The notes beneath the pieces are model-generated. The model searched no databases, was not told the DNA's origin, and worked only from the letters and a program-made list of their open reading frames with translations. From Bifidobacterium longum subsp. longum JCM 1217 (GTDB taxonomy: Bacteria > Actinomycetota > Actinomycetes > Actinomycetales > Bifidobacteriaceae), in contig NC_015067.1 of the NCBI RefSeq assembly GCF_000196555.1, positions 1,200,001 through 1,232,000 of the forward strand: a stretch of DNA of 32,000 nt. The letters run 5' to 3'. Each line of letters begins with the position of its first letter. Within the stretch, counting starts at the first letter, position 1. The translations under genes were made by a program, and so were the position numbers. Positions 1 through 32,000 of this stretch are shown one piece after another.

Positions 1-55
1 GGTTGGCTTCGAGCAGTCGCGGGTCGGACAGGAGATACGGGTTGTGTTCGCTCAT
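1..55 (-). CDS. 5' end of an unidentified CDS running off the left edge (MSEHNPYLLSDPRLLEAN...)
   Basis: ATG at 55-53 overlaps the TGA (54-52) of the upstream 985-aa gene as an ATGA junction. Only 18 codons are visible, so no product call. Confidence 0.4.
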   Translation of the reverse strand, partial: MSEHNPYLLSDPRLLEAN

Positions 56-3009: not shown

Positions 3010-3028
3010 GCGGGATCCTCCTTCGTTG

Positions 3029-3424: not shown

Positions 3425-3428
3425 GATC

Positions 3429-3791: not shown

Positions 3792-3807
3792 CCTTTCCTT
3801 CCGACGT

Positions 3808-7686: not shown

Positions 7687-8622
7687 TTACTGGTTCTTCC
7701 CGGCCACACAGCCGGCGAGGTAGGTGACGGTCTGCTGTTTCTCCCTCGGAGTCATCGTCAGACCGTATTTCGTTTTGATGCTGACGCGTTTCGCCATGTA
7801 GTCGCACCGGTACGCCTTGTTGTCCGGCATCCAGATGTCGGGCGCGCCCGTATGCTGCGTCAGGTATCCGGATCGTCCGTTCACGTCGATGCCGCTCCCC
7901 TTCGCCATGTTCGCCGGCCCGTCCGAGGCGAGGAGCACGTCCGGATCGTTCGCGTATTCGACGCGTTTCGCCTGATCCCAGTCGCGGGCGCCGGACGCCC
8001 AAGCGTCGTACAGGGACACCACATGGTCGATCTGCACGTCGGCGCTCGTCTTCACGCCCCGTCTGAACCCGATGGTCCCGCCCGTGTACGGGTCGCGCAG
8101 CGTGCCCGACACGACCCGGCATGAGGAGTCCTTCCTCACGCCGGTCATGTCACGGGCGAGGATCGTGTCCCTCGTGGTCGCCTTCCCGCAGCCGGACGAA
8201 GCCCAGCCGCCGAACCGCGTCTCACGGTCGTAGCCGCCCGGCCTGGCGTCCGCCGTGCCTATCCGGCCGGCCGCGTCCAACTGGGCCCGCCATGCGGCCG
8301 CATCCCCCGTCGGGGCCGTGTCCGGGGTTCTCCCCGTGCCCTTCGCCCCCGCGTCCGTCTCCCCGCCCGTATGGACGCCGAACAGGGAGAGCAGGCCCGA
8401 CAGGCTTTTGGCATCCGGGTTGCGTCCCGCATCCCCCTTCTTCGATTCGGCCAATGCGGCCGTGGACGCGTCCGGGTTCCCGACGCCCAGCGTCTCGGAC
8501 ACGGTCCGCCAGCCTCCCGAGGAGACGAGCACGACGACAAGCACGCCCACCATGACCAGGGTCGCGATCATGGACAGCAGCTGCCGGAACGGGCCTCCCC
8601 CATCGCCACGTCGCATGGTCAC
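7687..8622 (-). CDS. Membrane-anchored/secreted DUF1524 (GmrSD C-terminal-like, His-Me finger) nuclease
   Basis: N-terminal TM (LLSMIATLVMVGVLVVVLV). Motifs typical of the actinobacterial DUF1524 family: DPYTGGTIGF, VQIDHVVSLYDAWASGA, ANDPDVLLASDGPANMAKG, WMPDNKAYRCDY, IKTKYGL. Confidence 0.75.
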   Translation of the reverse strand: MTMRRGDGGGPFRQLLSMIATLVMVGVLVVVLVSSGGWRTVSETLGVGNPDASTAALAESKKGDAGRNPDAKSLSGLLSLFGVHTGGETDAGAKGTGRTPDTAPTGDAAAWRAQLDAAGRIGTADARPGGYDRETRFGGWASSGCGKATTRDTILARDMTGVRKDSSCRVVSGTLRDPYTGGTIGFRRGVKTSADVQIDHVVSLYDAWASGARDWDQAKRVEYANDPDVLLASDGPANMAKGSGIDVNGRSGYLTQHTGAPDIWMPDNKAYRCDYMAKRVSIKTKYGLTMTPREKQQTVTYLAGCVAGKNQ

Positions 8623-8915
8623 GCCTCCGGGATGTAGACGGGGGCCTGCACCTGTTCGAGCAGCCAGTTGATCGCGGGCGTCAATCCGGTCATGTTCAGG
8701 CCGAGCACGCCGAGCACGCCCATGATCATGATCGCGGACAGGAGCAATGCGAGGACGCGCAGGCCCATGGAGAGCGCGGACTGGGCGCGGTTGAACGCGA
8801 AGCCCACGAGGAGCGCGATCATGAGGACGATGAAGTACACGCCGAACGCGCCCGGCGCGGTGACGCTCGACCAGAATGCGCGCCAGCCGGTGACGCCGAT
8901 ATCAACAATGCTCAT
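8619..8915 (-). CDS. Small three-TM membrane protein
   Basis: 98-aa hydrophobic ORF. Its stop overlaps the start of the nuclease gene (8619-8622). GGGGGAGG lies upstream of the ATG, and the T of a GCATAG box is 12 nt from the start. Confidence 0.6.
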   Translation of the reverse strand: MSIVDIGVTGWRAFWSSVTAPGAFGVYFIVLMIALLVGFAFNRAQSALSMGLRVLALLLSAIMIMGVLGVLGLNMTGLTPAINWLLEQVQAPVYIPEA

Positions 8916-13836: not shown

Positions 13837-14799
13837 TCATGCGTCCCGCGTCCGTCTGACGAGCAGCCGCTTGTACAGTCGGCGTCCGTTGACCGTCGGA
13901 TCGTCGAGCTTGCCGAGCAGCATGAACCCGTTGCCTGGCGCCCAATGTTCGAGGAAGTTCAACGGGACGCCCATCGGCCCGTCATGATCGTCGGGCATCA
14001 TGCGCATGGAGTCCACGTTGATCGCGTCGTAGGCATCATATTCCGGATATTCGTCCTCATGTCCCCGGTACGTGTGTCCCGTGGGAGGCTGGGTCTTGTC
14101 GGCGCGTGCGGCGGCGAGGCTGGTGAGCCATCGGATGCTGTTGACGCCGACCGTGCCGTCGGGCCGGATCATGCTTCCCGTCTTCGGCCGGTCGTCGGGC
14201 AGTCGGAAGAACATGCTGCCCGAGTGGATGCTCAGGCCGACGAGGCAGCGTCCCCCCTTGACCATGGGGAATACGTCGTTGGCGGTGGCGAGGTTCAGGT
14301 TGGCGACGATCAGGAAATCGGTGTCCGGATGCCGGCGGAGCATGCGCATGAACCGGATGGCCTTGCTGAACGGCGGGTTGGTGACGACGATCGCGCCGGG
14401 CCGGTCGAGCAGGCGTTCGCATTCGGGCGAGTCGAACGAGCCGTCGCCGTCCAATGGGCGGGCGGCCAGGTCCGCGATCGAATATCTTCCCTCGCGGCCG
14501 TCGTTGTCCACATGCCATTGCATGGCGGGCGTCCCGTCGTCGAACAGGGTGTCATGGTCGGGTTGGAAGCTCGTGCAGGTGAGGGACGCGATCCCGTATT
14601 CGCTCATGTGGTCGAGCGTCCATCGGACGAACATGCTCATGCCGGGCCGGTCATTGCAGTCGCAGATCACATGCCGGCCGGCCAGGTCATGGCGGTAATG
14701 GGACAGTTCCCTGTCGATCGCGTCGTACGTGGTGTAGAATTCGTCGGCCTTCGCCTTGCGCGCGCCGGTCAGGTACCGGTGATGCTTGTGTGTTCCCAT
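13837..14799 (-). CDS. EcoRI-methylase-like (PF13651-type) N6-adenine DNA methyltransferase, copy 1
   Basis: N-terminal KADEFYT, CDCND, catalytic VVTNPPFS (NPPF motif IV), C-terminal VNGRRLYKRLLVRR. CGCATAC box with its T 11 nt upstream of the ATG. Confidence 0.8.
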   Translation of the reverse strand: MGTHKHHRYLTGARKAKADEFYTTYDAIDRELSHYRHDLAGRHVICDCNDRPGMSMFVRWTLDHMSEYGIASLTCTSFQPDHDTLFDDGTPAMQWHVDNDGREGRYSIADLAARPLDGDGSFDSPECERLLDRPGAIVVTNPPFSKAIRFMRMLRRHPDTDFLIVANLNLATANDVFPMVKGGRCLVGLSIHSGSMFFRLPDDRPKTGSMIRPDGTVGVNSIRWLTSLAAARADKTQPPTGHTYRGHEDEYPEYDAYDAINVDSMRMMPDDHDGPMGVPLNFLEHWAPGNGFMLLGKLDDPTVNGRRLYKRLLVRRTRDA

Positions 14800-15029
14800 G
14801 CCCCGTCGTATGCGTCAGGGGCACGGTTTTCCGGTCGGCTGTCAGACGGCGGGACCGTTGCAGTCTCACCCCCGGATGCCGGTCGGCGGCATGTCATGCG
14901 GGGACGAATACGGTTTCGACGTGAACCAGCCGTGCACGCCATGACCCGTCCTGCGCTCCGATACGGACGGGGCCATTCCAGGGGTCCGCAAAGGCGCGGG
15001 CTCCGGGGCGGCCCCTTTTCCTTTCCGTC

Positions 15030-16136
15030 CTACCTCTGCGCGCCCTTGCGCAGGTTGCAGTCACGGCACAGCATCTGGCAGTTGTCCGGCACGGTGTGCC
15101 CGCCACGGCTCCACGGGACGATGTGGTCCGCATGCATGTCCGCCAGGCCGAACTCGCCGCCGCACACGGCGCACCGGTGCCCTTGGGCTTCATAGGCGGC
15201 GCGCTGGGTGCGTTTGTCGAACGCCCGGATGCTGAGTCTCCGCTCGTCGCCGTCGAGCAGATACCGGTAGACGCCGCTCTTGCGGGTCACGTCCTCGTCG
15301 GCCATCAGCTCTTGGACGCGGGCCTCAAGCGCGTTCGGGTCCAGGTCGGTACGGTCCCGGTTCGCATCGTACATGGGACCCCATGGCAGGCCCTTCATCT
15401 CCCGCCGGTAGACGGGGAACACGGCCTGCGCCCAGTCGAGCACGCTGCGGAAGTAGCTCCACAGCGCCTGCGCGGTCGGGTCGTGCTGGTGTGTGCCCAT
15501 GTAGTCCTCGACGCTCGCGCCGTGCCGTGCGGCCGCCCAGCCGAGCACGGTGGCCAGATAGTCCTGCCGGATGGCCGAGCCCTTCAGCCAGTCGCCGCCC
15601 ACCTGGACCGCGGGGCCGCCCGGCTTGCTGAAGCGGGCGCGGGCGTCCGCGACCCATGGGCCCGCGTATACGGCGTTCAGCAGCTCCTGGTCGTTCAGCT
15701 GGACGCCGGCGATGTTGACGATGCGGAACCAGTCGAGCTTCTCCGACTCGGTGCCGGAGCATACGTACACGGTCAGCGGGTAGCCGAGGATACGCTCCTT
15801 GACGTCGCGGGGCAGGTTGAAGAAGAACCGCCCGTCGAGGCTGTACTGTCCGGCCACGTATGAGCAGACGCTGATGGTGCGCTGCTGGCCGTCCATGACC
15901 TCGTAGCGTGGCCGCGCGTCGGGTCCCCGGTCCACCCAGTACATGACGTTCAGCGGGAGCCCCTTGAGTATGGTGCGCACCACCTCGTCGCGCCGGTCGT
16001 CCCGGTAGACGAACTCGCGCTGGTAGGGCGGGCGCACGTCCAGGTCGCCGCCGTAGGCGGTCACGCCCCCGACCGCATTGTCCGTGTAGCCTTGGCTCAG
16101 GTCGCGCACCGCGACGGTGATGGGTTCGACGTTCAA
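15030..16136 (-). CDS. DUF262 (ParB-like, GmrSD N-terminal type) plus C-terminal HNH endonuclease
   Basis: MDGQQRT motif of DUF262. HNH region CAVCGGEF...HADHIVPWSRGGH...NCQMLCRDCNLRKG. TTG start in a TTGA overlap with the upstream MTase stop, with AAGGAGG 6 nt upstream. Confidence 0.85.
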   Translation of the reverse strand: MNVEPITVAVRDLSQGYTDNAVGGVTAYGGDLDVRPPYQREFVYRDDRRDEVVRTILKGLPLNVMYWVDRGPDARPRYEVMDGQQRTISVCSYVAGQYSLDGRFFFNLPRDVKERILGYPLTVYVCSGTESEKLDWFRIVNIAGVQLNDQELLNAVYAGPWVADARARFSKPGGPAVQVGGDWLKGSAIRQDYLATVLGWAAARHGASVEDYMGTHQHDPTAQALWSYFRSVLDWAQAVFPVYRREMKGLPWGPMYDANRDRTDLDPNALEARVQELMADEDVTRKSGVYRYLLDGDERRLSIRAFDKRTQRAAYEAQGHRCAVCGGEFGLADMHADHIVPWSRGGHTVPDNCQMLCRDCNLRKGAQR

Positions 16137-17344
16137 TTGGATGCCTCCTTGCGGCGGATGAGGATTCGCCTGTATGTCTCCTGGCCGTGTATGCGCCCGT
16201 TCATCAGACCGGGCGCACGGCGGGTCATGTTCGGATAGTCGCGGTCTATCGGCTCGGTCTGCGGCGTATGGTGATGCGGGCGTACTTCGATTTGCCGTTG
16301 ACCATCGTGTCCTTCGGATTGTTGAACAGCCCGGCTATCGCCGTCGCCGGACGAGTATGCGAAAGTACGGTTGTACTCTCTCTCTCTTTCTCGGGTGAAG
16401 ACCAGGTCGCGTCCGTCATCGCCCTTGCGGAACGCGACGATGTCGAATTGGTCCGGGTTGTACTTGTCCATGAACGTGATGGGCACGCCCATCACGCCGT
16501 AGTAATCCTCGGGGATGTCGGCCACCTTCGACACCTCGATGGCGTCGTGGTTGTCGTACTTCGGGTAGTCGGTCTCATGGCCCTTGTACCGGCGATAGAG
16601 CAGCAGGTCCTCGTGGCGCTTTTTGATGTCCAGGTTGGTGTACCAACGGCACAGGCCGTTGACTTGTTTGGTGGTCCCCTCGCCGGGGATGGTGAAGTCG
16701 GACGGCGAGGTGAAGCCCAACCAGACCTTGTCATCGCGTAGGAGCGGAAAGATCTCCTTGTAGGTAATGGCGTTCTTGTTGCCCAGTACCACGAATTTCT
16801 TGCCATGTTCCACGAGCGTCGCCACATACTCGCGGAACAGGCTGAACGGCGGATTGGTCACGACGATGTCGGCCTCGTCGAGCAGTTCGAGGCATTCACG
16901 GCTGCGGAAGTCCCCGGCTCCGTATTCGCCGTCCCCGTGGAGCTCGGCCACCTCGTTGCCCGGGGCGTTCAACAGCACTTTGACGTCCTCCATGTCGAAG
17001 CCGCCGTCACCGGTCGTATCCTCCACGTGGGTGACGATGGCCTTGTAGGCGTGACGCGACGGCGCGTCCGGTTCGTCGCCGAACAGCGACGGCTGGTACT
17101 CGGCCCCGGCGATAGGCGAGCCGCAGTAGCTCGTCGCCATCAGCTTCTTCAGTCCCAGATGGTTGAAGTTCAGGGCGAAGTACCTGAAGAAGTTCGACTC
17201 GTAGGGGTCGTCGCAGTTGCAAAGCACGGTCCTGCCTTTGAAATGCTCCGAGTAATGCCTTAGCTCGTTCTCGATGTCCGGCATTCGTGTGTAGAACTCG
17301 TCGTTCTTGGCCTTCTTGGCGGCTGATAGTTGGTTGTTGCCCAT
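16133..17344 (-). CDS. EcoRI-methylase-like N6-adenine DNA methyltransferase, copy 2 (3' region shows a reading-frame anomaly)
   Basis: Start chosen at MGNNQLSAAKKAKNDEFYT (ATG 17344), with the T of an ACGCATAGCG box 11 nt upstream. CNCDDP, VVTNPPFS, tail GLMNGRIHGQETYRRILIRRK. The 74 codons upstream in the track ORF look non-coding. Confidence 0.75.
   Translation of the reverse strand: MGNNQLSAAKKAKNDEFYTRMPDIENELRHYSEHFKGRTVLCNCDDPYESNFFRYFALNFNHLGLKKLMATSYCGSPIAGAEYQPSLFGDEPDAPSRHAYKAIVTHVEDTTGDGGFDMEDVKVLLNAPGNEVAELHGDGEYGAGDFRSRECLELLDEADIVVTNPPFSLFREYVATLVEHGKKFVVLGNKNAITYKEIFPLLRDDKVWLGFTSPSDFTIPGEGTTKQVNGLCRWYTNLDIKKRHEDLLLYRRYKGHETDYPKYDNHDAIEVSKVADIPEDYYGVMGVPITFMDKYNPDQFDIVAFRKGDDGRDLVFTREREREYNRTFAYSSGDGDSRAVQQSEGHDGQRQIEVRPHHHTPQTEPIDRDYPNMTRRAPGLMNGRIHGQETYRRILIRRKEASN
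16376..16387. repeat. (CT)6 / (AG)6 dinucleotide repeat inside MTase copy 2
   Basis: ctctctctctct on the + strand, which encodes RERERE on the minus strand. Confidence 0.9.
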
Positions 17345-17476
17345 ACCGGGCGCTATGCGTCGCGGCGAAAGGAAAGGTGCCGCCGAAGCCTTTGGCGGCA
17401 CGGCCCGTCCTGGGCGGATACGCCGACGGGCCGCCGCCAATAAGCCGGAAGTCCCGCACCGTTTGCCGAACATGAC

Positions 17477-17517
17477 AGGAGGCCGCCTCATGGGATAATC
17501 CCGTGGGGCGGCCTCCT
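17477..17517 (-). terminator. Long hairpin after the 17523 stop
   Basis: aggaggccgcc (17477-17487) pairs perfectly with ggcggcctcct (17507-17517), with partial pairing inside the loop. No clear U-tract. Confidence 0.4.
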
Positions 17518-17522
17518 TACGA

Positions 17523-18092
17523 CTATTCGACGCGTTCCACCTTATCGTCGAACAGATGGAACCCATGGCGTGCGGCGGCGACGCCCTGCGGTGTCCTGTC
17601 GGCCAAACGGCGTAGGTCGCTGTCGTCGTACGCTTTGATGGTCAGCGTGCAATGGTAGCCTCCCTCGCCCTTGGTCAGGTCCAGGTCGGGGTCGGCGAGA
17701 AGCCCCTCGCGGTCGGGCTTGCTTCCTTGGGGATAGCACAGTTTGAAACGGACGGTCCAATCGGCGGGCTCGCCGATCTCATACTCGTCCGACTTTGCGC
17801 CGGGAATCCTCGCGGTGATGTCCGCAGCCTGACGGTTCGCCCGTTCGATGCGGTCCGCCTTGCCCTGATGACGGTCGAGCCAAAGATTCACCGCATGGGA
17901 CACGTCCGCCCCTTCGGATCGGGTGCAGTCGCAGTCGACGTGGACGCGAAGCGCATCCTCATCCCCGTCATATCCGGCCGTGACGATCACAGCCTTGTGG
18001 CAGATGGGACATTCGCGCCCTGCATATAGGTCGCGGAACCGCTCGAACGATTCGACGCAACGATTCCACCTCCAGGCGCGCCCGTACAACAA
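17523..18092 (-). CDS. Hypothetical Cys-containing protein (CPICHK ... CDCDCT, possible zinc ribbon)
   Basis: 189-aa ORF with good third-position GC. Only TTG starts are available, so the start is uncertain. Confidence 0.5.
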   Translation of the reverse strand: MLYGRAWRWNRCVESFERFRDLYAGRECPICHKAVIVTAGYDGDEDALRVHVDCDCTRSEGADVSHAVNLWLDRHQGKADRIERANRQAADITARIPGAKSDEYEIGEPADWTVRFKLCYPQGSKPDREGLLADPDLDLTKGEGGYHCTLTIKAYDDSDLRRLADRTPQGVAAARHGFHLFDDKVERVE

Positions 18093-20919: not shown

Positions 20920-20986
20920 TATTCGACAATGACGGGGACGCATGCGGGATGCCATAAAGGATTTCTCCGCATGCAAGGAGCCCGTC

Positions 20987-22408
20987 ATGGCCGAAAGAAT
21001 CACCACACTGTTACAGGATCGTCTCCCGGTGGATTCGGACCGTCGTCTGAAGGTGCCGGCCATCCGGCCGGAGGACGACATGGTCGCCGTCCGCCGCCGT
21101 CTGGGCCGCTACCTGTACGATTCATTGGAGAAGGACACGGACCGCAAGGCGGTGGCCAAGGCCACCGCGAACGCGATCTGGCCGGGCTGCACGCCCATCG
21201 ACCGCGACACGGACGCGGAGGTCGCGCGCGACCTGAGGCGCACGGAATCAAAGACCGGCAGCCCCGCGATCGCATTGCGGCATCCGGCGGGGCGGATTCT
21301 CATCATCGGGCTCGGCCCGCACAAACCCATGCTGGCGAGAATCGACTACAGGTACCGTCTCTCGAAGCGCACCGTGGACACGGTGAGCCTGCCGAGCCTG
21401 CTGGCCGCCCGCATGATCATGGAGCATATGGCGAACCCGGATCCGGAGGGGCCGATCCGCGACCTGCTGACCGACGACCGGCACACATGGCAGTATTTCC
21501 GTACGAACATGGATCGCCGGTTCGAAGGCGTGGACGGGCTCGTCGTCTCCTGCAACACCCGCGGCGTGAGCCTCCCCGACCCGCCCGAGGCGGGCGATGC
21601 GAAGGCGTTGCTGGCATGGACGGTCGGGGCGGGACTGATCGGATTGGACTGCGATGACGAACGCGCGAAAAGGCTGCTGGCGGAACGCCTCGAATGGGTG
21701 CGGTGGACGGCGGAGCTGCGGCTTGCGGCCGAGACCATCCTGCGCGTCGAATCGGATTGGCGCATGAACCGGGATCTCGCCCGCCGCACGGAGGCCGGAG
21801 TATCGGCGACCGTGTTCGAGGACAAGAAACACCGTGATCCGAAGCACGACAAGGCCGGGCAGGCCAGCCCGTTCGCCATGGACTTCGACCGGATCGAGGT
21901 CGAGGACGACGTGGACCTCGCCCTGTTCGCCCGACTGGGAGCCGAATGGGAGGCGTTGAAGCCCGCCGTCCCCATGTCCGGGACGCGCGCCGCATTGCGC
22001 TTCCGCTACACGGGACGCCACCGGGCGGACGGCGTCTACCACACCGGTTTGCGCGCGATCGCGATAGACCCGCGCCACCCCGAATCGTTCGGCCACGAGC
22101 TCATGCATCACCTCGACCACACGTGGGGCGGAACCGACCTGAGCCTCGACCCGCTGTTCCGCCCCCTGCTCGACCACTATCGTGAGACCGTGGACACGGC
22201 GCGCATGAAGGGCGCGAACCCGGACCGGTGGCTCGCCCCCGCGGAGGCGTTCGCAAGGGCGGGCGAGATTTGGCTGCACATGCGACTCGACGGCGCCGAA
22301 AACAGTCTGCTCTCCGACGGCGGGCATTACGAAACGGATTGGGCGTACGCCCCCTACCGGGGCCGGTGGAATGAGATCGGGACCGTGTTCGACCGGCTGT
22401 TCGCCTAG
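20987..22408 (+). CDS. HExxH zincin-like metallopeptidase-motif protein (473 aa)
   Basis: AAGGAG 6 nt upstream of ATG 20987, with an alternative ATG at 20942 inside a conserved box. The C-terminal third carries ESFGHELMHHLDH. Confidence 0.65.
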   Translation: MAERITTLLQDRLPVDSDRRLKVPAIRPEDDMVAVRRRLGRYLYDSLEKDTDRKAVAKATANAIWPGCTPIDRDTDAEVARDLRRTESKTGSPAIALRHPAGRILIIGLGPHKPMLARIDYRYRLSKRTVDTVSLPSLLAARMIMEHMANPDPEGPIRDLLTDDRHTWQYFRTNMDRRFEGVDGLVVSCNTRGVSLPDPPEAGDAKALLAWTVGAGLIGLDCDDERAKRLLAERLEWVRWTAELRLAAETILRVESDWRMNRDLARRTEAGVSATVFEDKKHRDPKHDKAGQASPFAMDFDRIEVEDDVDLALFARLGAEWEALKPAVPMSGTRAALRFRYTGRHRADGVYHTGLRAIAIDPRHPESFGHELMHHLDHTWGGTDLSLDPLFRPLLDHYRETVDTARMKGANPDRWLAPAEAFARAGEIWLHMRLDGAENSLLSDGGHYETDWAYAPYRGRWNEIGTVFDRLFA

Positions 22409-22619: not shown

Positions 22620-25600
22620 ATGATCAGATTCGAATACGAATACCCCGTCCGCGTGAAGACCCAGGCAGGCGACAGCGTCGAATTCGACCCGGCGAACAAC
22701 GGCGGCCACCGGGCGCTCCTCGACCGGCAGATAGCGAAATGGCAGGCCGGGTATCCGGAGGCCAAGGCCGCCCGCCTCGAATTCATCGACCGGGACCGGC
22801 ATGTCGCCGTCCTCGTCGACCGGCAGTCGTCCAGCGTCGACATGCGCGACGATTCCAGCCTCGAAGTCAATCTGAGCGCCGAACATTCGAAACCCAGCAA
22901 GGGCGCCGAGGTGCAGGCCGTATACGAGACGAAATACCCCGGATACCGGCTCACCGTGTTCCACCCGTACGAAGGCAAGGCGCTCCTCGAACGGCTCACG
23001 GACGCGCAGGCCACGGCCCGCGCCCAGATCGCCACCGAACTCGGCCTGCACGACTGGGATCTCAGGGTCACGCCTTTGGAGGACGGCGGATGGAAGGTCC
23101 TCCTCGACGAGGGCATCACCTACCAGCCGTCCAAAATGGACACGCGCATGGAGAAGGCCTGCCTGACCGTCGGCCGGCTCGGCTGGTGGTTTGACGCCGA
23201 CCCCGACACCGGCGTCATCGAGATCCATCCCGGCGAGCCGCCCACCTTCCCCAAACTCGTCCCCTTCCCGTTCGACCGGATCGGCGACCCGACCGTCCGC
23301 GACAAGACCCCGTTCGGCATCCGACTGGCCCGCCCCGGCGAGACCGGCGAACCCGCGTTCGTCGACTGGACCCAATCCCTCGGCCTCCTTATAGCCGGAT
23401 TGTCAGGTGGCGGCAAGGCTCTTCCCTTGGATGCGCGTATCCCCGTGCCCGTCTCCGAACGCTTCCCCGCCGGCTGGGCTAGGAACCGGGACCTCAAAGA
23501 AGGCGATCCGGTGTACGGGCGCGACGGGCGGATCATCCCCATCAAGGACTTCAGCGACGTGGAGGAGCTGCCCATCTACCGTCTGACCCTGTCCGATGGC
23601 CAGATTCTGGAATGCGCGGACAACCATCTGTGGACCGTATCGGATTCCGTCATGCGCCAGGCCATGTCCGACGAACGAGGCCGGGAGCGACGCGAACAGA
23701 CCATCCGGCTCGTGAATCGTTTGCGTGACGAAGCGGCCACGGTCGGGGATGGCGTGAGAGCCAACCGACGCCATATCGCCATCGACCACGGGCTGCCCCC
23801 TAATGTGACCCAGAACTGCGCGGAACGGCATGATCTGGTCGGGTCGGATGGCCTGTGCGACGAGGCGGAACTGCTGCACGCCATCGCCGACGAACGCGAA
23901 TCCTACGTCATGCCCGGCGGCGTATGGGCGAACACCGTCGAAACGATCCTCACTGCACGCGAGATATCGGAGAATCCGAAACCTCACGGCAAATGCTGGG
24001 GTATCCGCCTTGCCAATCCCATCGAGAATCCGGACGCCAACCTGCCGCTCGGCCCGTATTTCCTCGGCACCTGGCTTGGCGACGGCATCTCCCGTGCCGG
24101 GGCCATCTGTCTCAACGATGACGACGAACCGCATATGCAACCCGACATTCTCTCCAGTCTGGGTGGTTCGATCCGTCGCGGAAAAGTTGAACACGGGGCG
24201 CATACCTGGTTCTATGACATGGATGACGGGCGCATCCTCGTAACCGAACTCAAAAGGCTCGGCCTGTACATGGACAAGCACATCCCCGCCGTCTATCTGC
24301 GCGCCTCCAAGAGCCAGCGCCTCGCCCTGCTCCAGGGGCTCATGGATACGGACGGTTCGGTTTCCAGTCGCGGATCATGCGAACTGTGCTTCACCAATCA
24401 GCGGCTTGCCGAAACCGCATTGGAGCTCATCCGCTCCCTGGGCATCGCCGCCGGCATGCACTCCGGACGGGCGGGCTATACAAAAGACGGCGAACGTGTG
24501 GAGGCCGGCATCCGGTATCGGATCCGTTTCACCACCTCCAAACCCGTGTTCCGCTTGCCCCGCAAACTGGCACGGCTCAAGACCGACACCCGTTCCACGC
24601 AGGATTGGCTGTACATCACGTCCTGCGAGCCGACGGGGCGCACGGAGCCGGTCCGCTGCCTGAACGTGGCGACCGACGACCACCTGTTCCTCATGGGCGG
24701 GTTCGTGCCCACGCATAACAGCGTCACCATCAATGACGTGACCACGTTGGGCATCGGCACGGGCGCGGAACTGTACGTGATCGACCATTCCACGAAGGCC
24801 ACCGACTACTACTGGTGCCGGCCGTGGATCGCGGACCGGGGCTGGGGCGCGGATTCGCTGCTCCAGACCGCCGGACTGTTGAAATGGCTGCTCGACGACA
24901 TCGAGGACGGCGGCGAGCGCGCCAGGGCGTGGAAGAGCCACGGCTGGCAGAACTGGTACGACGACCTGTCAGACGAGGACAAGAGACGATACCCGTACCG
25001 GCTGATCGTCGTGGACGAGCTGTCCCAGCTGACGGTCGGCGCGAAGGATGCGACCAGCCTGCCGAAGAACCCGCTGCCGCCGGTCATGGAGAAGATGTTC
25101 GAACAGCAGGTGAAGGCGCTCATCCTGTCCACCCTGATCCGCATCCTTCAGATCGGCCGAGCCTATGGCTACCGGGTGGTGGTCGCCACCCAGATCGCGT
25201 CGTCGACGACGGGCATGCCGCCCGCGTTGCGCGGCAACCTGGGCAACAAGGTCATCATGGGCGCGAAGGTCAACGACGCGCAGAAGAACCTGATCTTCAA
25301 CATCGCGAAGGACGTGCCCGACATTCCGGCGAACGTGATCGACGAGGGCGTGTCCAAGGGCGCGGGCCTGAGCGAGATGGAGGGGCAGCCGCCCTACGAT
25401 TTCAAGAGCTCGTTCCCCATGCTTGGGCATCATGCGGGCGTGGCGGCGCTCGGCAAGGCTTTGGCCGAACGGATCGGCCTGCCCGACGGGATCGGCATGG
25501 ACGAATACCTCGACTCCCTGGACAAGGACACGCCTTCGAACCCGGAGTTCGAACAACGGGTCATGGAACGCATCCGGTTCCCCGAGGCGGAATCATATCT

Positions 25601-25811
25601 GCGTTTCCCGTTCCTGCAGGCCATCAAGGACAAGTGGGATGAAAGCCTCGACGAGTACGGGGGCGGCCCGGCCGATGCCGGATCCGGGGGGAACGGGGAT
25701 GACGGCACCGCACCCGCCGGCCGACCGGTCGCACCGGCCGCCTCCGGCCCGGAACCGTCCGGCCCGCTCATGGACGCGGCCGAACTGGCGCGCATCATGC
25801 GCCGGGGCTGA
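22620..25811 (+). CDS. FtsK/SpoIIIE-family conjugative coupling/translocase ATPase (TcpA/TraB-like), interrupted by an intein
   Basis: Walker A is split as GLSGGGK | S. Walker B is YRLIVVDELSQL. VVVATQIASS...LRGNLGNKVIMG is typical of FtsK-like motors. No SD, and the T of a GGCATAGCC box is 12 nt upstream of the ATG. Confidence 0.85.
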   Translation: MIRFEYEYPVRVKTQAGDSVEFDPANNGGHRALLDRQIAKWQAGYPEAKAARLEFIDRDRHVAVLVDRQSSSVDMRDDSSLEVNLSAEHSKPSKGAEVQAVYETKYPGYRLTVFHPYEGKALLERLTDAQATARAQIATELGLHDWDLRVTPLEDGGWKVLLDEGITYQPSKMDTRMEKACLTVGRLGWWFDADPDTGVIEIHPGEPPTFPKLVPFPFDRIGDPTVRDKTPFGIRLARPGETGEPAFVDWTQSLGLLIAGLSGGGKALPLDARIPVPVSERFPAGWARNRDLKEGDPVYGRDGRIIPIKDFSDVEELPIYRLTLSDGQILECADNHLWTVSDSVMRQAMSDERGRERREQTIRLVNRLRDEAATVGDGVRANRRHIAIDHGLPPNVTQNCAERHDLVGSDGLCDEAELLHAIADERESYVMPGGVWANTVETILTAREISENPKPHGKCWGIRLANPIENPDANLPLGPYFLGTWLGDGISRAGAICLNDDDEPHMQPDILSSLGGSIRRGKVEHGAHTWFYDMDDGRILVTELKRLGLYMDKHIPAVYLRASKSQRLALLQGLMDTDGSVSSRGSCELCFTNQRLAETALELIRSLGIAAGMHSGRAGYTKDGERVEAGIRYRIRFTTSKPVFRLPRKLARLKTDTRSTQDWLYITSCEPTGRTEPVRCLNVATDDHLFLMGGFVPTHNSVTINDVTTLGIGTGAELYVIDHSTKATDYYWCRPWIADRGWGADSLLQTAGLLKWLLDDIEDGGERARAWKSHGWQNWYDDLSDEDKRRYPYRLIVVDELSQLTVGAKDATSLPKNPLPPVMEKMFEQQVKALILSTLIRILQIGRAYGYRVVVATQIASSTTGMPPALRGNLGNKVIMGAKVNDAQKNLIFNIAKDVPDIPANVIDEGVSKGAGLSEMEGQPPYDFKSSFPMLGHHAGVAALGKALAERIGLPDGIGMDEYLDSLDKDTPSNPEFEQRVMERIRFPEAESYLRFPFLQAIKDKWDESLDEYGGGPADAGSGGNGDDGTAPAGRPVAPAASGPEPSGPLMDAAELARIMRRG
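23418..24719 (+). mobile_element. 434-aa intein with a LAGLIDADG homing endonuclease domain, inserted in the P-loop
   Basis: Starts ALPLDARIPV right after GGGK and ends FVPTHN before SVT, so removal restores GLSGGGKSVT. Block B is GQILECADNHLW and block F is VRCLNVATDDH. LAGLIDADG motifs are YFLGTWLGDGIS and LALLQGLMDTDGSV. Confidence 0.85.
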
Positions 25812-26017: not shown

Positions 26018-27052
26018 TCATCCATGCGCCGGATAAGCGTCCCGTGGCGTCCCGTCGTCGGCGATGCTCGCCCAATGGTATCCGTAGGCGACGTGATCCG
26101 GGTCGCCCGCCACATGCCCGATGTTGGTGGCCGACCCGGCGGGCAGTCCCAATGCGACTGCGGCGGCGCGCAACGACGGGTATATGGTTCCCGTCTCCAC
26201 GCAGCGGATGGCGTGCCGGTTGCCTTTCGGCGCGGATCCCGCCCTCAGCCGGGCCAGGAGCGCCGGATCAGCCGAGGCCAGCCGGGCCAGCCATTCCGGG
26301 CTCGCCCAATGGAAGCCGCCGGCGCGGCGATCCGGATTGTCTCGCACATGGTTGATCAGGTCGCGCATGCCGGGCGTGTTCCTTGTCCGGCCCGTCAGGG
26401 CCAGGGTTTCGGCGGCGCGCATCGCGTCCCCGTATTCGACGCCCGTCTCCACGCATACGACCGGGCCGCGCAGCATGGTCTCGCGCATCGTCCTGCGCCA
26501 GGCGGCGAGCAGGCCGGGATGCCGGCGGCGTATCCGCCCGTACGTGACGCCGTCGACCCAGTGGACGCCCCCGTTCCGCCTGTCCAGCCGGTTGCGCTTC
26601 TGCAACCGGGATACGGGCATGCCATGCGCTTCGGCGGCCAGCGTCATCGTGTCGTACGCCTCCCCCGTTTCGGCGCACACCCACAGTCCCCTGAGCCGCT
26701 CCCCCTCCACAAGCCCCCGCAGCCGGCGGCGGCCTTGTTCGCCCAGCGCATCCCAGCGTCCGGCGGAAATCCAGTGCGCGCCGCCGGCGCTGCGACGCCA
26801 TGGCTGCGCGCTTCTGGCCGCCACGCTGATCCTGCCCACGGCCGCCCCGGTCTCATCATGGGCGGCCTTCAGCGTGTCGAACCGTCTGCCGTCCTCGATG
26901 CGCACCACGCCGGACAACCGTCGCGGCTCGAACTCGAATCCCGCGGCCTCCAGACGACGGGTCTGCCCCGCGTCGAGCCGGCCATGCCGCCACGCGTCGC
27001 GGATCCGCGCCGCATACGCCTGGTATCGTCTGGCTTCAACGCTTGTCGCCAC
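26018..27052 (-). CDS. Helicase-associated-domain-like N-terminus plus four tandem NUMOD1-like DNA-binding repeats
   Basis: GTG start overlapping the helicase 3' end by 17 nt. Four repeats of the pattern h-x-C-h-E-T-G-x-x-Y-x(3)-AA-x(10-25)-GG-x-HW: RIEDGRRFDTLKAAHD..GGAHW, VCAETGEAYDTMTLAAEA..NGGVHW, VCVETGVEYGDAMRAAET..AGGFHW, RCVETGTIYPSLRAAAVA..AYGYHW. Confidence 0.7.
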   Translation of the reverse strand: MATSVEARRYQAYAARIRDAWRHGRLDAGQTRRLEAAGFEFEPRRLSGVVRIEDGRRFDTLKAAHDETGAAVGRISVAARSAQPWRRSAGGAHWISAGRWDALGEQGRRRLRGLVEGERLRGLWVCAETGEAYDTMTLAAEAHGMPVSRLQKRNRLDRRNGGVHWVDGVTYGRIRRRHPGLLAAWRRTMRETMLRGPVVCVETGVEYGDAMRAAETLALTGRTRNTPGMRDLINHVRDNPDRRAGGFHWASPEWLARLASADPALLARLRAGSAPKGNRHAIRCVETGTIYPSLRAAAVALGLPAGSATNIGHVAGDPDHVAYGYHWASIADDGTPRDAYPAHG

Positions 27053-28295
27053 GGCGTTCCCCCAATCGTCGGATCACGTATTCGATCTTCCCGTCCATGC
27101 TCATGCCCAGCATGTCCTCCAGACGGGAGGCGAGGATGCGGATGTCGGCCGTCTCGTCCACGATCCGCATGCCCGCCAGCGGGTTTCCGGCATCCATATC
27201 CGCGCCGCCGGCCGCATCCGCGGGGGTTCCATGGGCGAGCAGCCATCCCAGCCCCGAATAATTGTCCGATATGTCGAACACGAGGGGCGTCCGGTTGCCC
27301 GTCGCGTCCAGGACGCGCCCCAACTGCTGGAGGTACACGTGCGGGCTTGTGGTGGCGCGCAGCATGACGATCGCGTCCACGCCGTCCAGATGCACGCCCT
27401 CGTTGAGCATGTCCACGCAGTACAGGATCTTCCGCCCCGGCGCCGAATCCGCCTCGAACGCGCGGATCGCGCCGTCGGGCCGCCCGTACCGGCTGTGGAT
27501 CGCGTAATCCCTCGCATCCGGGCCGAACCATTCGCGGGCATGGGCGCGCGCCCCCTCCAGCCGGGTCAGGTCGGTGCAGAACACGATGACGTGCGCGTCC
27601 GGCGGCAGGCGGCGGGCGAACATGGCGTCGACGCCTGCCATGCCCGTCACGGCGCGGCGCAGCCGTTCGAACAGGCGGCGCGCGTCCGGCGTCCCGCACC
27701 GTTCCACGCGGGGGCGGACGCGTCCGATGAGCGCATCCCCCTCGTATCCGGCGATGACGTATTCGGGGACGGGCAGTATCCGTCGCGCCCATGCCTCGCT
27801 CAATGTCATGCGGGAGGCGACCCGCCCGTCGAACAGCTCGTCGGTCATGTCCCTGGCCCCGTCCCCGTACCGTCTGGGCGTGGCCGACAGTCCGACGATC
27901 CTCGCCCCGGGGTTCGCGTCCAGGAGACGGCGCACCCCCGCGCCCCAATGGCGGGCCCCGCAATGATGGTATTCGTCGAGGATGATCAGGTCCGCATGCG
28001 GCATGGGGTTCCCGCGGCGCGTGCCGATCATCAGCTTCGCGTAGGTGAGGACCGTCACCCGGTCGGCCCGGAAGCCCGGGATGTCCCGTTCCAGGCATGG
28101 CAGCCGGCCGTCGGTGATGGTCCTTGACGGAGTGCACCAGATGACGTCCCATGACGGGCGGGCGGCGATGAGCGCGGCGGCGACGTAGGATTTGCCGGTC
28201 CCGGTCGGCTGGATGACGGCCGCCCTGTCCGTCATGTCGAGCATGGCCTCCAGTCCGCGCAATGCGGTCCGATTATGCGGGAGCAGTCCGTTCAT
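27036..28295 (-). CDS. Superfamily-2 DEAD/DEAH-box helicase (type III restriction Res-like core)
   Basis: Motif I QPTGTGKS, motif II LILDEYHH, motif III LSATP, motif VI QQLGRVLD. ATGA overlap with the upstream gene. Confidence 0.85.
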   Translation of the reverse strand: MNGLLPHNRTALRGLEAMLDMTDRAAVIQPTGTGKSYVAAALIAARPSWDVIWCTPSRTITDGRLPCLERDIPGFRADRVTVLTYAKLMIGTRRGNPMPHADLIILDEYHHCGARHWGAGVRRLLDANPGARIVGLSATPRRYGDGARDMTDELFDGRVASRMTLSEAWARRILPVPEYVIAGYEGDALIGRVRPRVERCGTPDARRLFERLRRAVTGMAGVDAMFARRLPPDAHVIVFCTDLTRLEGARAHAREWFGPDARDYAIHSRYGRPDGAIRAFEADSAPGRKILYCVDMLNEGVHLDGVDAIVMLRATTSPHVYLQQLGRVLDATGNRTPLVFDISDNYSGLGWLLAHGTPADAAGGADMDAGNPLAGMRIVDETADIRILASRLEDMLGMSMDGKIEYVIRRLGERRGDKR

Positions 28296-29074
28296 GCCGT
28301 CGGGTATGCGTTCCCCTCGCGTTTCTCGAACGTTTCGAGCATGGCGGGCACGCCTTCCATGGGGAACGTGGCCGTCGTGCCGAGGATGACGCCCTTCAAC
28401 AGGTTCGCGGCCACATGCTCCGCCTCCCGGACGGCTTTCGTGTTCGAGGCGGGACGCCGGTGCGCGGCCGCGTACTCGCGCATGACGGGCAGTTGGCGCG
28501 CCAGCTCGTCGTCATGCATGCCGTGCGCGCGGATGCGCCGCAATTCCGCGAGGTCGTCGTCCGGCAGGCGGCACGGCCATGGGGCGGACGGGTCCGCGCA
28601 GACGAGGCCGGCGGCGAGCATGAGCCGCATCGATTCCGCCTGCATTTTCCGCCGCCGCCGGGCGTCCATGTCCCGTTCCAGCAGATGCAGGTTCGAGGCG
28701 ACGTTGCCCAACGCCATGTCCACGGTCCGCCGTGTCGCCAGACCGGCCGCCAGGGGCTTCAGACCGTCCGGCAGCCCCGCGTCGAGGAGCAGGCACCCGT
28801 CCGGCAGGGACAGGGCCTCGAGCATGTTCGGGGATCCCTTGGCGACGCCTTTCAGGAACGCGACGGGCGTCATGATGGTGATGTCGGGATCGTGCAGCCC
28901 GATCGTCGCGTCCGCGCGATCCAGGAGGATGTCCTCCGGATCCGGCGCGATGACGATCCTCAGGTCGATGTCGCTGTCCGGACGGGCGAGCCCGTGCGCG
29001 TGGCTGCCGCCCACCCATGCGGCGAGCACGCGACGGGCCATGTGGGGTGCGAGCGCCTGTTCGAAACGGTTCAT
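28292..29074 (-). CDS. Pol-beta-superfamily nucleotidyltransferase (RlaP/PF10127-like)
   Basis: Start chosen at MNRFEQ (ATG 29074, ATGA overlap with the upstream stop). NTase signature GGSHAHGLARPDSDIDL (G-S ... D-x-D). Confidence 0.7.
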   Translation of the reverse strand: MNRFEQALAPHMARRVLAAWVGGSHAHGLARPDSDIDLRIVIAPDPEDILLDRADATIGLHDPDITIMTPVAFLKGVAKGSPNMLEALSLPDGCLLLDAGLPDGLKPLAAGLATRRTVDMALGNVASNLHLLERDMDARRRRKMQAESMRLMLAAGLVCADPSAPWPCRLPDDDLAELRRIRAHGMHDDELARQLPVMREYAAAHRRPASNTKAVREAEHVAANLLKGVILGTTATFPMEGVPAMLETFEKREGNAYPTA

Positions 29075-29403
29075 CGTTCGATTCCCAACGATTCGAGGTA
29101 GTCGTCGCCGAGCCGGGCGGCCTGCCGGCCTTCGCGGCTGTGGTTGATGCGGTCGGCCACGTCGCACGCCTCGCGGACGAGACCGGCGAACAGGCGGGCG
29201 TCGCCGGCGTCGCGGGCGCCGATGCCGGTCCATGCGATGCGGGCCTTGCCGTATTCCATGCGGATGGTCACGCAGGCCGGTTCGCCGAGGCGCGTGGCGT
29301 CCGTCCCGTTGTCGATCCGGTATGGGCGTTCCGGGTCGTCGAGACGGTGGACGGTGAAGTGTTCTGTGGAGAATGCGATGCGATCGTTCATGGAGGGATG
29401 CAT
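29071..29403 (-). CDS. Hypothetical protein (106-110 aa), first gene of the helicase operon
   Basis: ATG 29403 is directly preceded by GGGGACGC, with an alternative ATG at 29391. No motif recognised. Confidence 0.5.
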   Translation of the reverse strand: MHPSMNDRIAFSTEHFTVHRLDDPERPYRIDNGTDATRLGEPACVTIRMEYGKARIAWTGIGARDAGDARLFAGLVREACDVADRINHSREGRQAARLGDDYLESLGIER

Positions 29404-29430
29404 GCGTCCCCGCGGACGGGTTCCGTCGGG

Positions 29431-29479
29431 CTTTACATTATTGTAAAGCCCCGGCCCCGGACTTTACAATATTGTATAG
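29431..29479 (-). promoter_or_regulatory. Two 18-bp AT-rich palindromes that carry a sigma70-like -35/-10 for the minus-strand operon
   Basis: ctttacattattgtaaag (29431-29448) and ctttacaatattgtatag (29462-29479). On the minus strand, TTGTAA (29469-29464) and TACAAT (29445-29440) are separated by 18 nt, about 35 nt upstream of ATG 29403. Confidence 0.45.
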
Positions 29480-30925: not shown

Positions 30926-31711
30926 TTATTTGGTCATGAGGGCGTGTTCGCTTCGGTAGGAGCGGCCCTCGAATCTGATGAGCCGTCCGTGGTGGACGGT
31001 GCGGTCGATGAGGGCGGCGGCCATGTTCTTGTCGCCGAGCACGCGTCCCCATCCGCTGAATTCGATGTTGGTGGTGTAGATGATGCTCCTTGTCTCGTAG
31101 GAATCGGAAATGATCTGGAAGAGGAGCCTGCTGCCCTCCTCGTCTATGGGCAGGTAGCCGAACTCGTCGATGATGAGAAGTCGGGCCTTGCCGATGCTCG
31201 CGAGTTCCCGGTCGAGCCGGTTCTCCTGCTGGGCGCGGCGCAGACGCATGAGCAGTCCGGTCGCGGTGAAGAAGCGCACCGGGACGCCCCGCTCGCAGGC
31301 GAGCCGTCCGATCGCGATGGCCAGGTGGCTCTTGCCGGTGCCGACGGGCCCGTAGAGCACGAGGTCCTCGCATCCGGCGACGAAGTCGAGGTTCTCGAGC
31401 TGCGCGCGCCCCCAGTCGGCGGGCATCTTCAGGTTGGTCCAGTCATAGCCGTCGAGGGTCTTGTCGGCGGGGAAGCCGGCCTGTTTGAGCAGGCGCAGGC
31501 GTTTGGATCGCTCGCGCGAGTCGAGTTCGGCCGTGAACCATCGTTCGATGAAGTCGAGCTGGTTGGGCGTGGCCTCGGCGAGCGTGCCCGCGAGCACGCT
31601 GCGTGTCAGGGTCAGGCTGCGGCTCATCTTCAGGATCCTCTCGCTCTTCTCGGTCGTGGACGCGCGACGGCGGCGGGTCTCCGGGATCACCGGATCGGGT
31701 CTGACGCTCAC
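30926..31711 (-). CDS. istB: IS21-family helper ATPase IstB
   Basis: Walker A GPVGTGKSHLA, Walker B LLIIDEFGY, IYTTNIEFSGW and RTVHHGRLIRFEGRSYR. GTG start overlapping the istA stop, with an alternative ATG at 31627. Confidence 0.9.
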   Translation of the reverse strand: MSVRPDPVIPETRRRRASTTEKSERILKMSRSLTLTRSVLAGTLAEATPNQLDFIERWFTAELDSRERSKRLRLLKQAGFPADKTLDGYDWTNLKMPADWGRAQLENLDFVAGCEDLVLYGPVGTGKSHLAIAIGRLACERGVPVRFFTATGLLMRLRRAQQENRLDRELASIGKARLLIIDEFGYLPIDEEGSRLLFQIISDSYETRSIIYTTNIEFSGWGRVLGDKNMAAALIDRTVHHGRLIRFEGRSYRSEHALMTK

Positions 31712-32000
31712 CGTTCTTCCCCTCCGTCGTCCGTGCCGGTGATGAACCGGTCGTAGCCGCTCAGGTCGGGCTCCTCGATCCCGCCGGGGTATTCCCACTC
31801 GCCGTCGCGCATGCGCAACGCGATAGGGGTGAGCGAGTCCGCGTGCAGGCCCATGTCCCTGTTCGAGCGCAGGATCTCGCCGCACGCCTGCATCGCGGGA
31901 TCGAACCCGGCCGCCCGGCACGCGTCCCCGATCGCTTTGAGGCTCTCCCTCAACGTCTTTTCGTCCATGGAATCAAGCCACGCGCGTATATCGTCGGGCA
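31708..32000 (-). CDS. istA: IS21-family transposase IstA, C-terminal part only
   Basis: The reading frame is open to the window edge (PDDIRAWLDSMDEKTLRESLKAIG...). It lies immediately upstream of and overlaps istB. The call is by position. Confidence 0.6.
   Translation of the reverse strand, partial: PDDIRAWLDSMDEKTLRESLKAIGDACRAAGFDPAMQACGEILRSNRDMGLHADSLTPIALRMRDGEWEYPGGIEEPDLSGYDRFITGTDDGGEER

Follow-up and report, generated by a model that had tools for sequence, protein, structure and literature searches.

A probable class 3 intein with a LAGLIDADG endonuclease in the P-loop of an FtsK/TcpA-like ATPase of Bifidobacterium longum

The split ATPase gene and its insert

The DNA considered here (the window) is a 32,000-nucleotide (nt) stretch of Bifidobacterium longum subsp. 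longum JCM 1217, positions 1,200,001 to 1,232,000 of contig NC_015067.1, which is GC-rich throughout (≈0.55–0.73 per kb). It carries, on a mobile island, a gene for a precursor protein of 1063 amino acids (aa), in which an ATPase related to FtsK and TcpA is split by a single 434-residue insert. The GC content at third codon positions (GC3) of this open reading frame (ORF) is 0.83, which marks it as a real gene. The insert occupies precursor residues 267–700 within one uninterrupted frame, just where the original prediction, a reading of the DNA letters and ORF translations, had placed it. We conclude, with a probability of roughly 0.85, that it is a full-length class 3 intein, made up of a HINT domain for splicing, a linker of helices and an endonuclease with two LAGLIDADG motifs. 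Public annotation recognises neither the intein nor the host ATPase: the RefSeq product names, taken from members of the 90% cluster of the precursor (WP_318712771.1, WP_230595074.1 and WP_258926821.1), are "LAGLIDADG family homing endonuclease" in B. longum or "hypothetical protein" in B. breve.

The insert splits the Walker A motif, or P-loop, of the ATPase. With junctions marked by slashes, the sequence reads LLIAGLSGGGK/ALPLDARIPV at the upstream end and GGFVPTHN/SVTINDV at the downstream end. Excision of residues 267–700 yields GLSGGGKS, which fits the P-loop pattern GxxGxGK(S/T), and the restoration of the P-loop that had been foreseen is thereby borne out.

Class 3 inteins are defined by a non-nucleophilic N-terminus that co-varies with a Trp(B:12)-Cys(F:4)-Thr(G:5) triad and by Ser or Thr at position +1 (PMC2807308; PMC5050341). 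All of these features are found here: there is no nucleophile at residue 1, Trp is at B:12, Cys at F:4, Thr at G:5 is followed by His-Asn, and the +1 residue is Ser. The original prediction had pointed to an Ala rather than Cys or Ser at the start of the insert and to the Trp-Cys-Thr triad, and both are in place, the motifs NHLW (intein residues 69–72), VRCLNV (412–417) and PTHN (431–434) each being unique. In a phmmer search of the PDB sequences, the best matches were the class 3 DnaB mini-inteins 6rix and 6riy from M. chimaera and 6bs8 from M. smegmatis (E = 2e-7 to 3e-6), which align in two stretches, one N-terminal and one C-terminal. HLW falls on HQW, PVRCLNV on PVRCVEV, and VPTHN on VPTHN, so that the proposed block assignment holds in a proper alignment. 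Judged by sequence, the motif match is far beyond chance.

Ten Bifidobacterium inteins could be compared, with pairwise identities of 41–81% except for the window intein and that of P0001, which are identical. His70, Trp72, Cys414, His433, Asn434 and Ser+1 are invariant in these copies, as are Asp222 and Asp312 of the endonuclease. Residue 432 is Thr in nine and Ser in one (P0017), the first residue varies between A, M and H, with C, S and T never seen there, and Cys66 is present in all ten.

Two LAGLIDADG motifs had been taken as the sign of an intact endonuclease, and both are present with their catalytic Asp conserved, in a domain that is under purifying selection (see below). Across 21 inteins, P213, Y214, G217, W219, L220, G221, D222 and G223 of motif 1 and D310, D312 and G313 of motif 2 are invariant. 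The middle of the insert matches PI-PfuI significantly, and PI-SceI and PI-PkoII weakly, in the same phmmer search. Residues 300–374 of the intein match Pfam LAGLIDADG_3 above the cut-off (23.4 bits; cut-off 22.5) and Hom_end slightly under it (21.0 bits; cut-off 21.1).

An AlphaFold model of the intein, based on a 21-sequence alignment, had a predicted local distance difference test score (pLDDT) of 91.7 and a predicted template modelling (pTM) score of 0.78. When the whole model was submitted to Foldseek, it matched PI-SceI with a template modelling (TM) score of 0.62 (E = 5e-17). MchDnaB-1 and MsmDnaB-1 were the top-ranked mini-inteins for the splicing domain, with a root-mean-square deviation of 1.8–1.9 Å over ≈76 columns and 30% identity. 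Further matches were to gp41-1 for the HINT fold of the splicing domain and to PI-PfuI and I-DmoI for the endonuclease fold. As modelled, the insert thus has both a HINT splicing domain and a double-motif LAGLIDADG fold.

Table 1. Coordinates of the precursor gene, the parts of the putative intein and the neighbouring features in the window
Feature	Position (nt)	Strand	Description
Precursor gene	22620..25811	+	1063 aa + stop; FtsK/TcpA-like ATPase split by one putative intein; single open frame
N-extein, aa 1–266	22620..23417	+	Terminates in Walker A GLSGGGK (nt 23397–23417)
Putative class 3 intein, 434 aa	23418..24719	+	Ala1 to Asn434; precursor residues 267–700, in frame
Block A region	23418..23456	+	ALPLDARIPVPVS; Ala at residue 1, no nucleophile
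Block B	23598..23639	+	GQILECADNHLWTV; His70 (B:10), Trp72 (B:12), lineage-invariant Cys66
LAGLIDADG motif 1	24054..24086	+	PYFLGTWLGDG; intein residues 213–223; catalytic Asp222
LAGLIDADG motif 2	24321..24356	+	LALLQGLMDTDG; intein residues 302–313; catalytic Asp312
Block F	24645..24692	+	EPVRCLNVATDDHLFL; Cys414 (F:4), predicted initiating nucleophile
Block G	24696..24719	+	GGFVPTHN; Thr432 (G:5), His433, Asn434
C-extein	24720..25811	+	First residue Ser+1, Walker A Ser and predicted splice nucleophile
Walker B	24999–25025	+	RLIVVDELS; within C-extein
Gene directly upstream of ATPase	20942–22408	+	No Pfam match
995-aa protein, then two small proteins	55–3806	-	Window left end; ≈8 and 2–3 transmembrane-like segments, respectively
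GmrSD_C protein	7690–8901	-	
EcoRI-like adenine methyltransferase	13840–14814	-	
GmrSD_N + HNH protein	15033–16334	-	
EcoRI-like adenine methyltransferase	16136–17641	-	
ResIII/DEAD-type helicase	27039–28511	-	Downstream of ATPase
Nucleotidyltransferase (RlaP/NTP_transf_2)	28295–29437	-	Downstream of ATPase
IS21-type IstB ATPase	30929–31972	-	Downstream of ATPase
ORFs with shared N-terminal motif	Starts near 9173, 11827, 18188	+	
ORF with shared N-terminal motif	Start near 7668	-	

Intein-less alleles, selection and the distribution of inserts

The conceptually spliced extein was searched against 5.8 billion proteins, and 40 relatives were returned. The named ones are all from Bifidobacterium (B. 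breve, B. sp. SO1 and B. castoris), and the relatives form two length classes, of ≈620–648 aa and ≈1054–1076 aa. A search with the intein alone missed the full-length Bifidobacterium precursors, probably because only a limited number of candidates was scored; these precursors come from the extein search. In an alignment of 24 homologues, G260, G263, G265 and K266 of the N-extein do not vary, and 14 short proteins show one clean gap that corresponds exactly to residues 267–700. They rejoin at G-x-G-K/S (T in one of them). The original prediction was to be given up if homologues without the segment did not exist or did not rejoin at GGGK/S; since they exist and rejoin exactly at GK/S or GK/T, it withstands that test.

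In three pairs of close relatives, of which one member carries the intein and the other does not, most of the extein sequence is shared (window/P0004, 95% identical; P0017/P0013, 96%; P0022/P0019, 97%). The DNA of the empty allele, taken from locus L002, reads GGATTGTCAGGCGGCGGCAAG/AGCGTCACCATCAACGACGTG at the junction, and the occupied and empty alleles differ by a few synonymous changes beside it. The intein-bearing allele is the common form in its clade: the clusters of intein-bearing sequences have 664, 120 and 30 members, compared to three for the 95%-identical empty allele.

Ratios of nonsynonymous to synonymous substitution (dN/dS) were calculated with our own implementation of the Nei–Gojobori method, comparing the window to a B. 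breve copy (locus L001). The ratio was 0.25 for the N-terminal splicing part, 0.24 for the helical linker, 0.18 for the LAGLIDADG part and 0.36 for the C-terminal splicing part (0.23 for the whole intein), and 0.14–0.25 for the exteins. Every part of the intein is under purifying selection, with no sign of pseudogene decay. The host gene is still constrained as well, which would make sense only if the protein is spliced.

The history of the insert appears to differ from that of its host. In the same comparison, dS of the intein (0.58) is twice that of the exteins (0.27–0.31). Within the window gene, GC3 is 0.77 in the intein and 0.86–0.89 in the exteins. The window protein and P0003 are 99% identical in their exteins and 66% in their inteins; the P0003 intein is closest to that of P0012 (71%), whose extein is just 61% identical. 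Together with the sporadic presence of the intein among near-identical exteins, this incongruence points to homing or recombinational exchange, of which it is the classical footprint. We also observed that the inteins of P0003 and P0012, which begin with Met or His, have an N-terminal half of the endonuclease domain (alignment columns ≈530–600) unlike that of the other eight (ITFNHADAEIMRPWL versus ICLNDDDEPHMQPDI). It seems that inteins occupying this one site have exchanged endonuclease modules.

The insert is also not an isolated case. An exhaustive profile search with the intein-less family against 1.84 billion cluster representatives found 202 relatives at E < 1e-30, and inserts of more than 100 aa lie between matched stretches in 49 of the 150 best family representatives. 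The original prediction, which knew of no class 3 intein in an FtsK-like coupling protein, had implied a uniqueness that these numbers contradict, and a published IcmO intein from Burkholderia vietnamiensis (Bvi), discussed below, is a partial precedent. Thirty-six inserts could be delimited by script, of which 33 are at the P-loop (GK/x) and three at profile position ≈293 (hK/...THN/S). A block F Cys and a THN ending are present in all 36 and H-x-W in 35; only two begin with S, the other 34 having A, R, L, F or Q at residue 1. Three further inserts, at profile position ≈442 (K/AQPL...PTHN/C), were read for their THN ending and their Cys at +1 and are not part of these counts. In 2016, Cys+1 was known among class 3 inteins solely from Bvi IcmO (PMC5222942).

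All three insertion sites come after a Lys. The P-loop, named in the original prediction as a classic intein site, is where class 3 inteins are typically inserted, and insertion after the P-loop Lys is the rule among them (PMC2807308). Some proteins have two or three inserts (P0270, 1534 aa; P0279, 1414 aa; P0289, 1634 aa), and inteins at the secondary sites were seen in the representatives P0270, P0279, P0288, P0289 and P0240. In a sample of 14 inteins, those at one secondary site are more alike (37–63%) than those from separate sites within a single protein (31–41%), and values for the P-loop inteins of the sample run from 32% to 50%. No paper on an intein from Bifidobacterium, or on one within an FtsK-like protein, came up in the literature that we searched (mainly open-access, with InBase outside it), an absence that is not proof. 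From its sequence, the window intein is one case of a widespread intein hotspot that is undescribed in this literature.

Relatives of the window intein occur outside the host family, in DnaB, terminases, dCTP deaminases and an AAA_10 ATPase (P0071). A related intein is present in a PilB/VirB11-type ATPase (P0105), with the junctions GSGK/A...PTSN/T. Another protein, P0172, is membrane-anchored, has a P-loop and a Walker B-like motif, and reads GSGK/ALALD...VRCIQV...PTHN/SGVLN; by eye it looks TraB/FtsK-like, but this is unconfirmed, as Pfam finds only the LAGLIDADG domain.

The host ATPase and its surroundings

With a profile built from 21 intein-less relatives, TcpA of pCW3 was the first match (6o1w, E = 8e-8), followed by FtsK; TcpA is the "DNA translocase coupling protein" of pCW3. 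The model of the intein-less homologue P0004 (pLDDT 85.9) gave the same ranking, with TcpA as the best fold match (TM 0.63–0.67), the FtsK motor next (≈0.58; E ≈ 4e-14 for these top matches), and EccC/EssC and HerA after that. The PHROG family phrog_1358, "FtsK/SpoIIIE-like", matches the spliced host with E = 2e-14, and a distant family member, P0040, scores 27.9 bits against Pfam FtsK_SpoIIIE (PF01580), above its cut-off of 24 bits. A RecA-like motor fold is indicated by the Walker A motif GLSGGGK/S, the Walker B motif RLIVVDELS and the modelled TcpA/FtsK fold. Because both the profile and the fold matches rank TcpA first and FtsK next, we assign the host, on modelled fold and sequence, to the FtsK-family motors, nearest the proven conjugative coupling protein TcpA.

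Among solved structures, TcpA from Clostridium perfringens (PDB 6O1W–6O1Z; the PDB titles name no intein) is thus nearest to the spliced host, but the two share only ≈15% sequence identity, and the host has an N-terminal α/β region of ≈225 aa that is specific to its family. No membrane segment is predicted in the host, in which the highest Kyte–Doolittle mean over 19 residues is 1.13, unlike in TcpA, FtsK and TraB. TcpA has N-terminal membrane helices.

The original prediction went further and described the host as a conjugative type IV secretion system (T4SS) coupling ATPase. The FtsK-family motor in this claim stood, with TcpA and FtsK as its best profile and fold matches; no VirD4, VirB4 or relaxase partner was found among the 20 likely genes scanned, nor was a membrane anchor predicted. 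Several observations weigh against a conjugative role. In addition to the lack of a predicted anchor, the spliced window protein scores only 13.5 bits against PF01580, below the cut-off (P0004 has no match at all), no VirB4-like, VirD4-like or relaxase family was matched in Pfam, NCBIfam or PHROG among 20 likely genes scanned in the window, and every homologue-carrying plasmid in PLSDB is typed as non-mobilizable. For these reasons the conjugative role is weakly grounded. Both this role and the dependence of conjugation on splicing, which the original prediction drew from it, are nonetheless reasonable suppositions.

Other observations connect the family to mobile plasmids. Homologues annotated as FtsK (31–35% identity) are carried by the megaplasmid pMP7017, by megaplasmids of B. 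longum and by large plasmids of Arthrobacter and Curtobacterium. pMP7017 is conjugative (PMC10832533), and the paper on its transcriptome does not discuss FtsK or coupling proteins (PMC10832533). A tblastn search with the window ORFs found no further synteny in the pMP7017 region around its FtsK genes. At its left end, the window encodes the 995-aa protein, for which, as for the two small proteins after it, no family was matched. Distant homologues of the large protein, with 22–27% identity, occur on Bifidobacterium megaplasmids of the pMP7017 type as well as on two plasmids from Arthrobacter, and it may be part of a channel, similar to VirB6 or TcpH. The C-terminal half of the gene product encoded directly upstream of the ATPase is 28–30% identical to "LPD1 domain-containing protein" genes on Enterococcus plasmids, with further matches on plasmids of Clostridium, Bacillus and other Firmicutes. 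LPD1 is typical of the polyvalent proteins of conjugative elements. This upstream gene is syntenic and 87% identical in two related loci, L001 and L002.

On balance, we consider the odds somewhat in favour of the host being a DNA translocase that serves island transfer. The genomic context is suggestive, not decisive. We considered the possibility that the intein is correctly identified, but that the host is instead a soluble FtsK-like motor for segregation or resolution, a type VII secretion, EssC-like export ATPase, or a HerA-like defence or repair enzyme. Such a host, which we regard as a possibility to be taken seriously though with the odds against it, is favoured by the lack of a predicted anchor and of any relaxase, VirB4 or VirD4 match among the 20 likely genes scanned, by the EccC/EssC and HerA fold matches, by the many genes for defence and restriction-modification nearby (GmrSD, HNH and two EcoRI-like methylases), and by a homologue on a Glaciihabitans plasmid whose neighbours are type IV pilus/Tad-like genes and not those of a classical T4SS. 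However, TcpA, which has a proven function in conjugation, tops both the profile and the fold matches, the conjugative megaplasmids of the pMP7017 family carry homologues of the ATPase together with homologues of the 995-aa protein, and plasmid genes with an LPD1 domain annotation are matched by the upstream gene. A translocase for island transfer therefore remains the reading that we prefer.

The Glaciihabitans homologue, an FtsK-like protein of a plasmid of strain sp. INWT7 (L004, 22024–26429), lies within 6–10 kb of type IV pilus/Tad-like genes, namely those for two ATPases of the type II secretion/type IV pilus/T4SS kind, an A24 prepilin peptidase and a member of the GspF family. Such neighbours hint that transfer might run through a pilus-associated apparatus and not a classical T4SS. 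One relative, P0016, appeared to fuse a MobA/VirD2 relaxase to the intein, but a Firmicutes-like N-terminus is joined mid-intein at ENPKPHGK; it was judged to be a metagenome chimera and set aside.

Most neighbouring genes in the window are without any family match, and scans for tRNA genes and Rfam families, which might have marked island borders or RNA genes, found none in the window. Two EcoRI-like adenine methyltransferase genes flank that for the GmrSD_N and HNH protein, forming a defence and restriction-modification cluster, and a GmrSD_C protein is encoded elsewhere in the left half of the window (Table 1). Downstream of the ATPase lie genes for a helicase, a nucleotidyltransferase and an IstB ATPase. 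The downstream genes match L001 and L002 in part only, suggesting that the right flank has been rearranged or disrupted by insertion sequences. Four otherwise unrelated ORFs without a Pfam family have in common an N-terminal motif of ≈25 aa, M(T/S)xDRNNRSH(K/R)PKG(T/L)P..G.(Y/F)(E/D), which also occurs three times in L001 and once in L002. It may be a common leader or a transfer or secretion signal of island cargo proteins.

Splicing, comparison with known inteins and significance

The strongest challenge to the intein itself is that the insert might be a decayed, non-splicing remnant, leaving the host ATPase dead or the 117-kDa fusion as solely a homing endonuclease, as its RefSeq name would have it. 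Decay of this kind is seen in relatives: the "DnaB" intein of Arthrobacter FB24 (Arth_1007) is a pseudogene with tiny exteins (PMC3196547), few extein residues remain in the closest intein relatives outside Bifidobacterium (P0042–P0046, one of them from Arthrobacter), and the match of P0041, from a B. bifidum metagenome-assembled genome, to a P0012-type precursor ends mid-intein in what looks like a frameshift. In the window, however, the frame is intact across 1063 codons, the catalytic residues are invariant in ten diverged copies, purifying selection acts on both the exteins of intein-bearing alleles and the splicing blocks (0.25–0.36), and the intein-bearing allele forms a cluster of 664 sequences. 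A decayed remnant is therefore very unlikely.

Still less probable, to the point of being barely credible, is that a genuine intein splices by another route, with Ser+1 attacking the N-terminal junction as in class 2 or some other residue acting as in class 1, and Cys414 not the initiator: KlbA-type inteins with Ala1 do splice without a block F nucleophile (PMC2807308), and P0017 has Ser in place of Thr at G:5, but class 2 inteins lack the Trp-Cys-Thr triplet (PMC2807308), whereas here Trp, Cys and Thr or Ser are all in place, invariant, and align with class 3 inteins proven by experiment, and Ser or Thr at +1 is the class 3 pattern (PMC2807308, PMC5222942).

For the window intein we thus assume the published class 3 pathway. 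The 117-kDa precursor would be unable to form a P-loop. Cys414, aided by Trp72 and His70, would attack the Lys266–Ala267 bond, giving a branch with a thioester at block F, and the N-extein would then be transferred to Ser+1. Cyclisation of Asn434 would release the intein, and an O-to-N shift would leave GLSGGGK-SVT and an active ATPase of ≈69 kDa. We infer that the protein does splice in this way, that the freed intein acts as an endonuclease, which would cut intein-less alleles at GGCGGCAAG/AGCGTCACC and be copied in by repair, and that the spliced host pumps DNA for island transfer.

A further possibility, speculative and improbable in our view, is a redox switch, in which a reversible Cys414–Cys66 disulfide formed under oxygen or peroxide would keep the translocase as an inactive precursor until conditions become reducing. 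The model for this is the Cys48–Cys118 disulfide of the M. smegmatis intein MsmDnaBi1 (PMC6195587). Cys48, however, aligns to Ile here, and the invariant Cys is instead Cys66, at block B:6.

Among known class 3 inteins, the prototype in DnaB of mycobacteriophage Bethlehem (MP-Be DnaB; PMC2807308) resembles the window intein in its non-nucleophilic residue 1, its Trp(B:12)-Cys(F:4)-Thr(G:5) triad, its Ser or Thr at +1 and in being a full-length intein within an ATPase. It differs in its extein, a DnaB-type helicase rather than an FtsK/TcpA-like motor, and in its length (≈341 aa versus 434 aa, compared by description), and the window intein has an extended N-terminal block, A-x-P-L-x-x-R-I-P-V-P-V-S-x-R-F-P-x-G-W-A, that is common to the inteins of the host family. 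The DnaB-1 mini-inteins of M. smegmatis and M. chimaera (6BS8, 6RIX) also follow the P-loop Lys, and their Ser+1 serves at the same time as the Ser of the P-loop, but they have lost the endonuclease, which is kept here under purifying selection. Class 3 LAGLIDADG inteins in actinobacteriophage terminases and Cas4 (Omega gp11, LittleE gp9) are 33–38% identical over 74–91% of the window intein, and its strongest PHROG match is to a terminase family (phrog_36964, E = 6e-29). These have the same architecture and preference for nucleotide-binding sites (PMC5050341, bioRxiv 10.1101/2025.01.02.630785), but are found in phage genes and not in an island or plasmid translocase. Extein switching via similar nucleotide-binding sites has been proposed for them (bioRxiv 10.1101/2025.01.02.630785), and neither intein survey (PMC5050341, bioRxiv 10.1101/2025.01.02.630785) mentions FtsK. 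A class 3 LAGLIDADG intein in a P-loop is thus already known as a kind; it is the extein family that is new as an intein carrier.

In type IVB secretion, IcmO/DotL serves as the coupling ATPase. A partial published counterpart in terms of host is the mini-intein of B. vietnamiensis G4 IcmO, also class 3, in a plasmid-borne gene named after the Dot/Icm coupling protein, the splicing of which has been shown experimentally (PMC5222942). It is, however, a proteobacterial intein of 142 aa with Cys+1, inserted outside the P-loop (ARSLGF/C), and its extein belongs to an unrelated branch of the FtsK–HerA superfamily.

The exteins of known class 3 inteins are mainly phage or actinobacterial helicases, terminases and Cas4 nucleases, to which an FtsK/TcpA-like translocase of islands and plasmids is added here. 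The value of the finding lies in this new extein family, in the hotspot pattern, with three sites, multi-intein proteins and Cys+1 variants within one family, in its occurrence in abundant human-gut bifidobacteria, and in the misleading annotation. Misleading public names have hidden what is probably an ATPase for DNA transfer in B. longum and B. breve, and as the host also falls below the PF01580 cut-off, surveys of mobile elements based on this family will miss it. Protein engineering could draw on the many diverged class 3 inteins, which are apparently functional and vary at residues 1 and +1. Since the ATPase would work only after splicing, any block to splicing would stop its function, and such a block would provide a handle on gene transfer in infant-gut bifidobacteria. 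If the redox gating were true, the intein could be more than a parasite and control horizontal DNA transfer post-translationally in a gut commensal that lives anaerobically, and the high intein load of the family might reflect selection for control, not homing alone.

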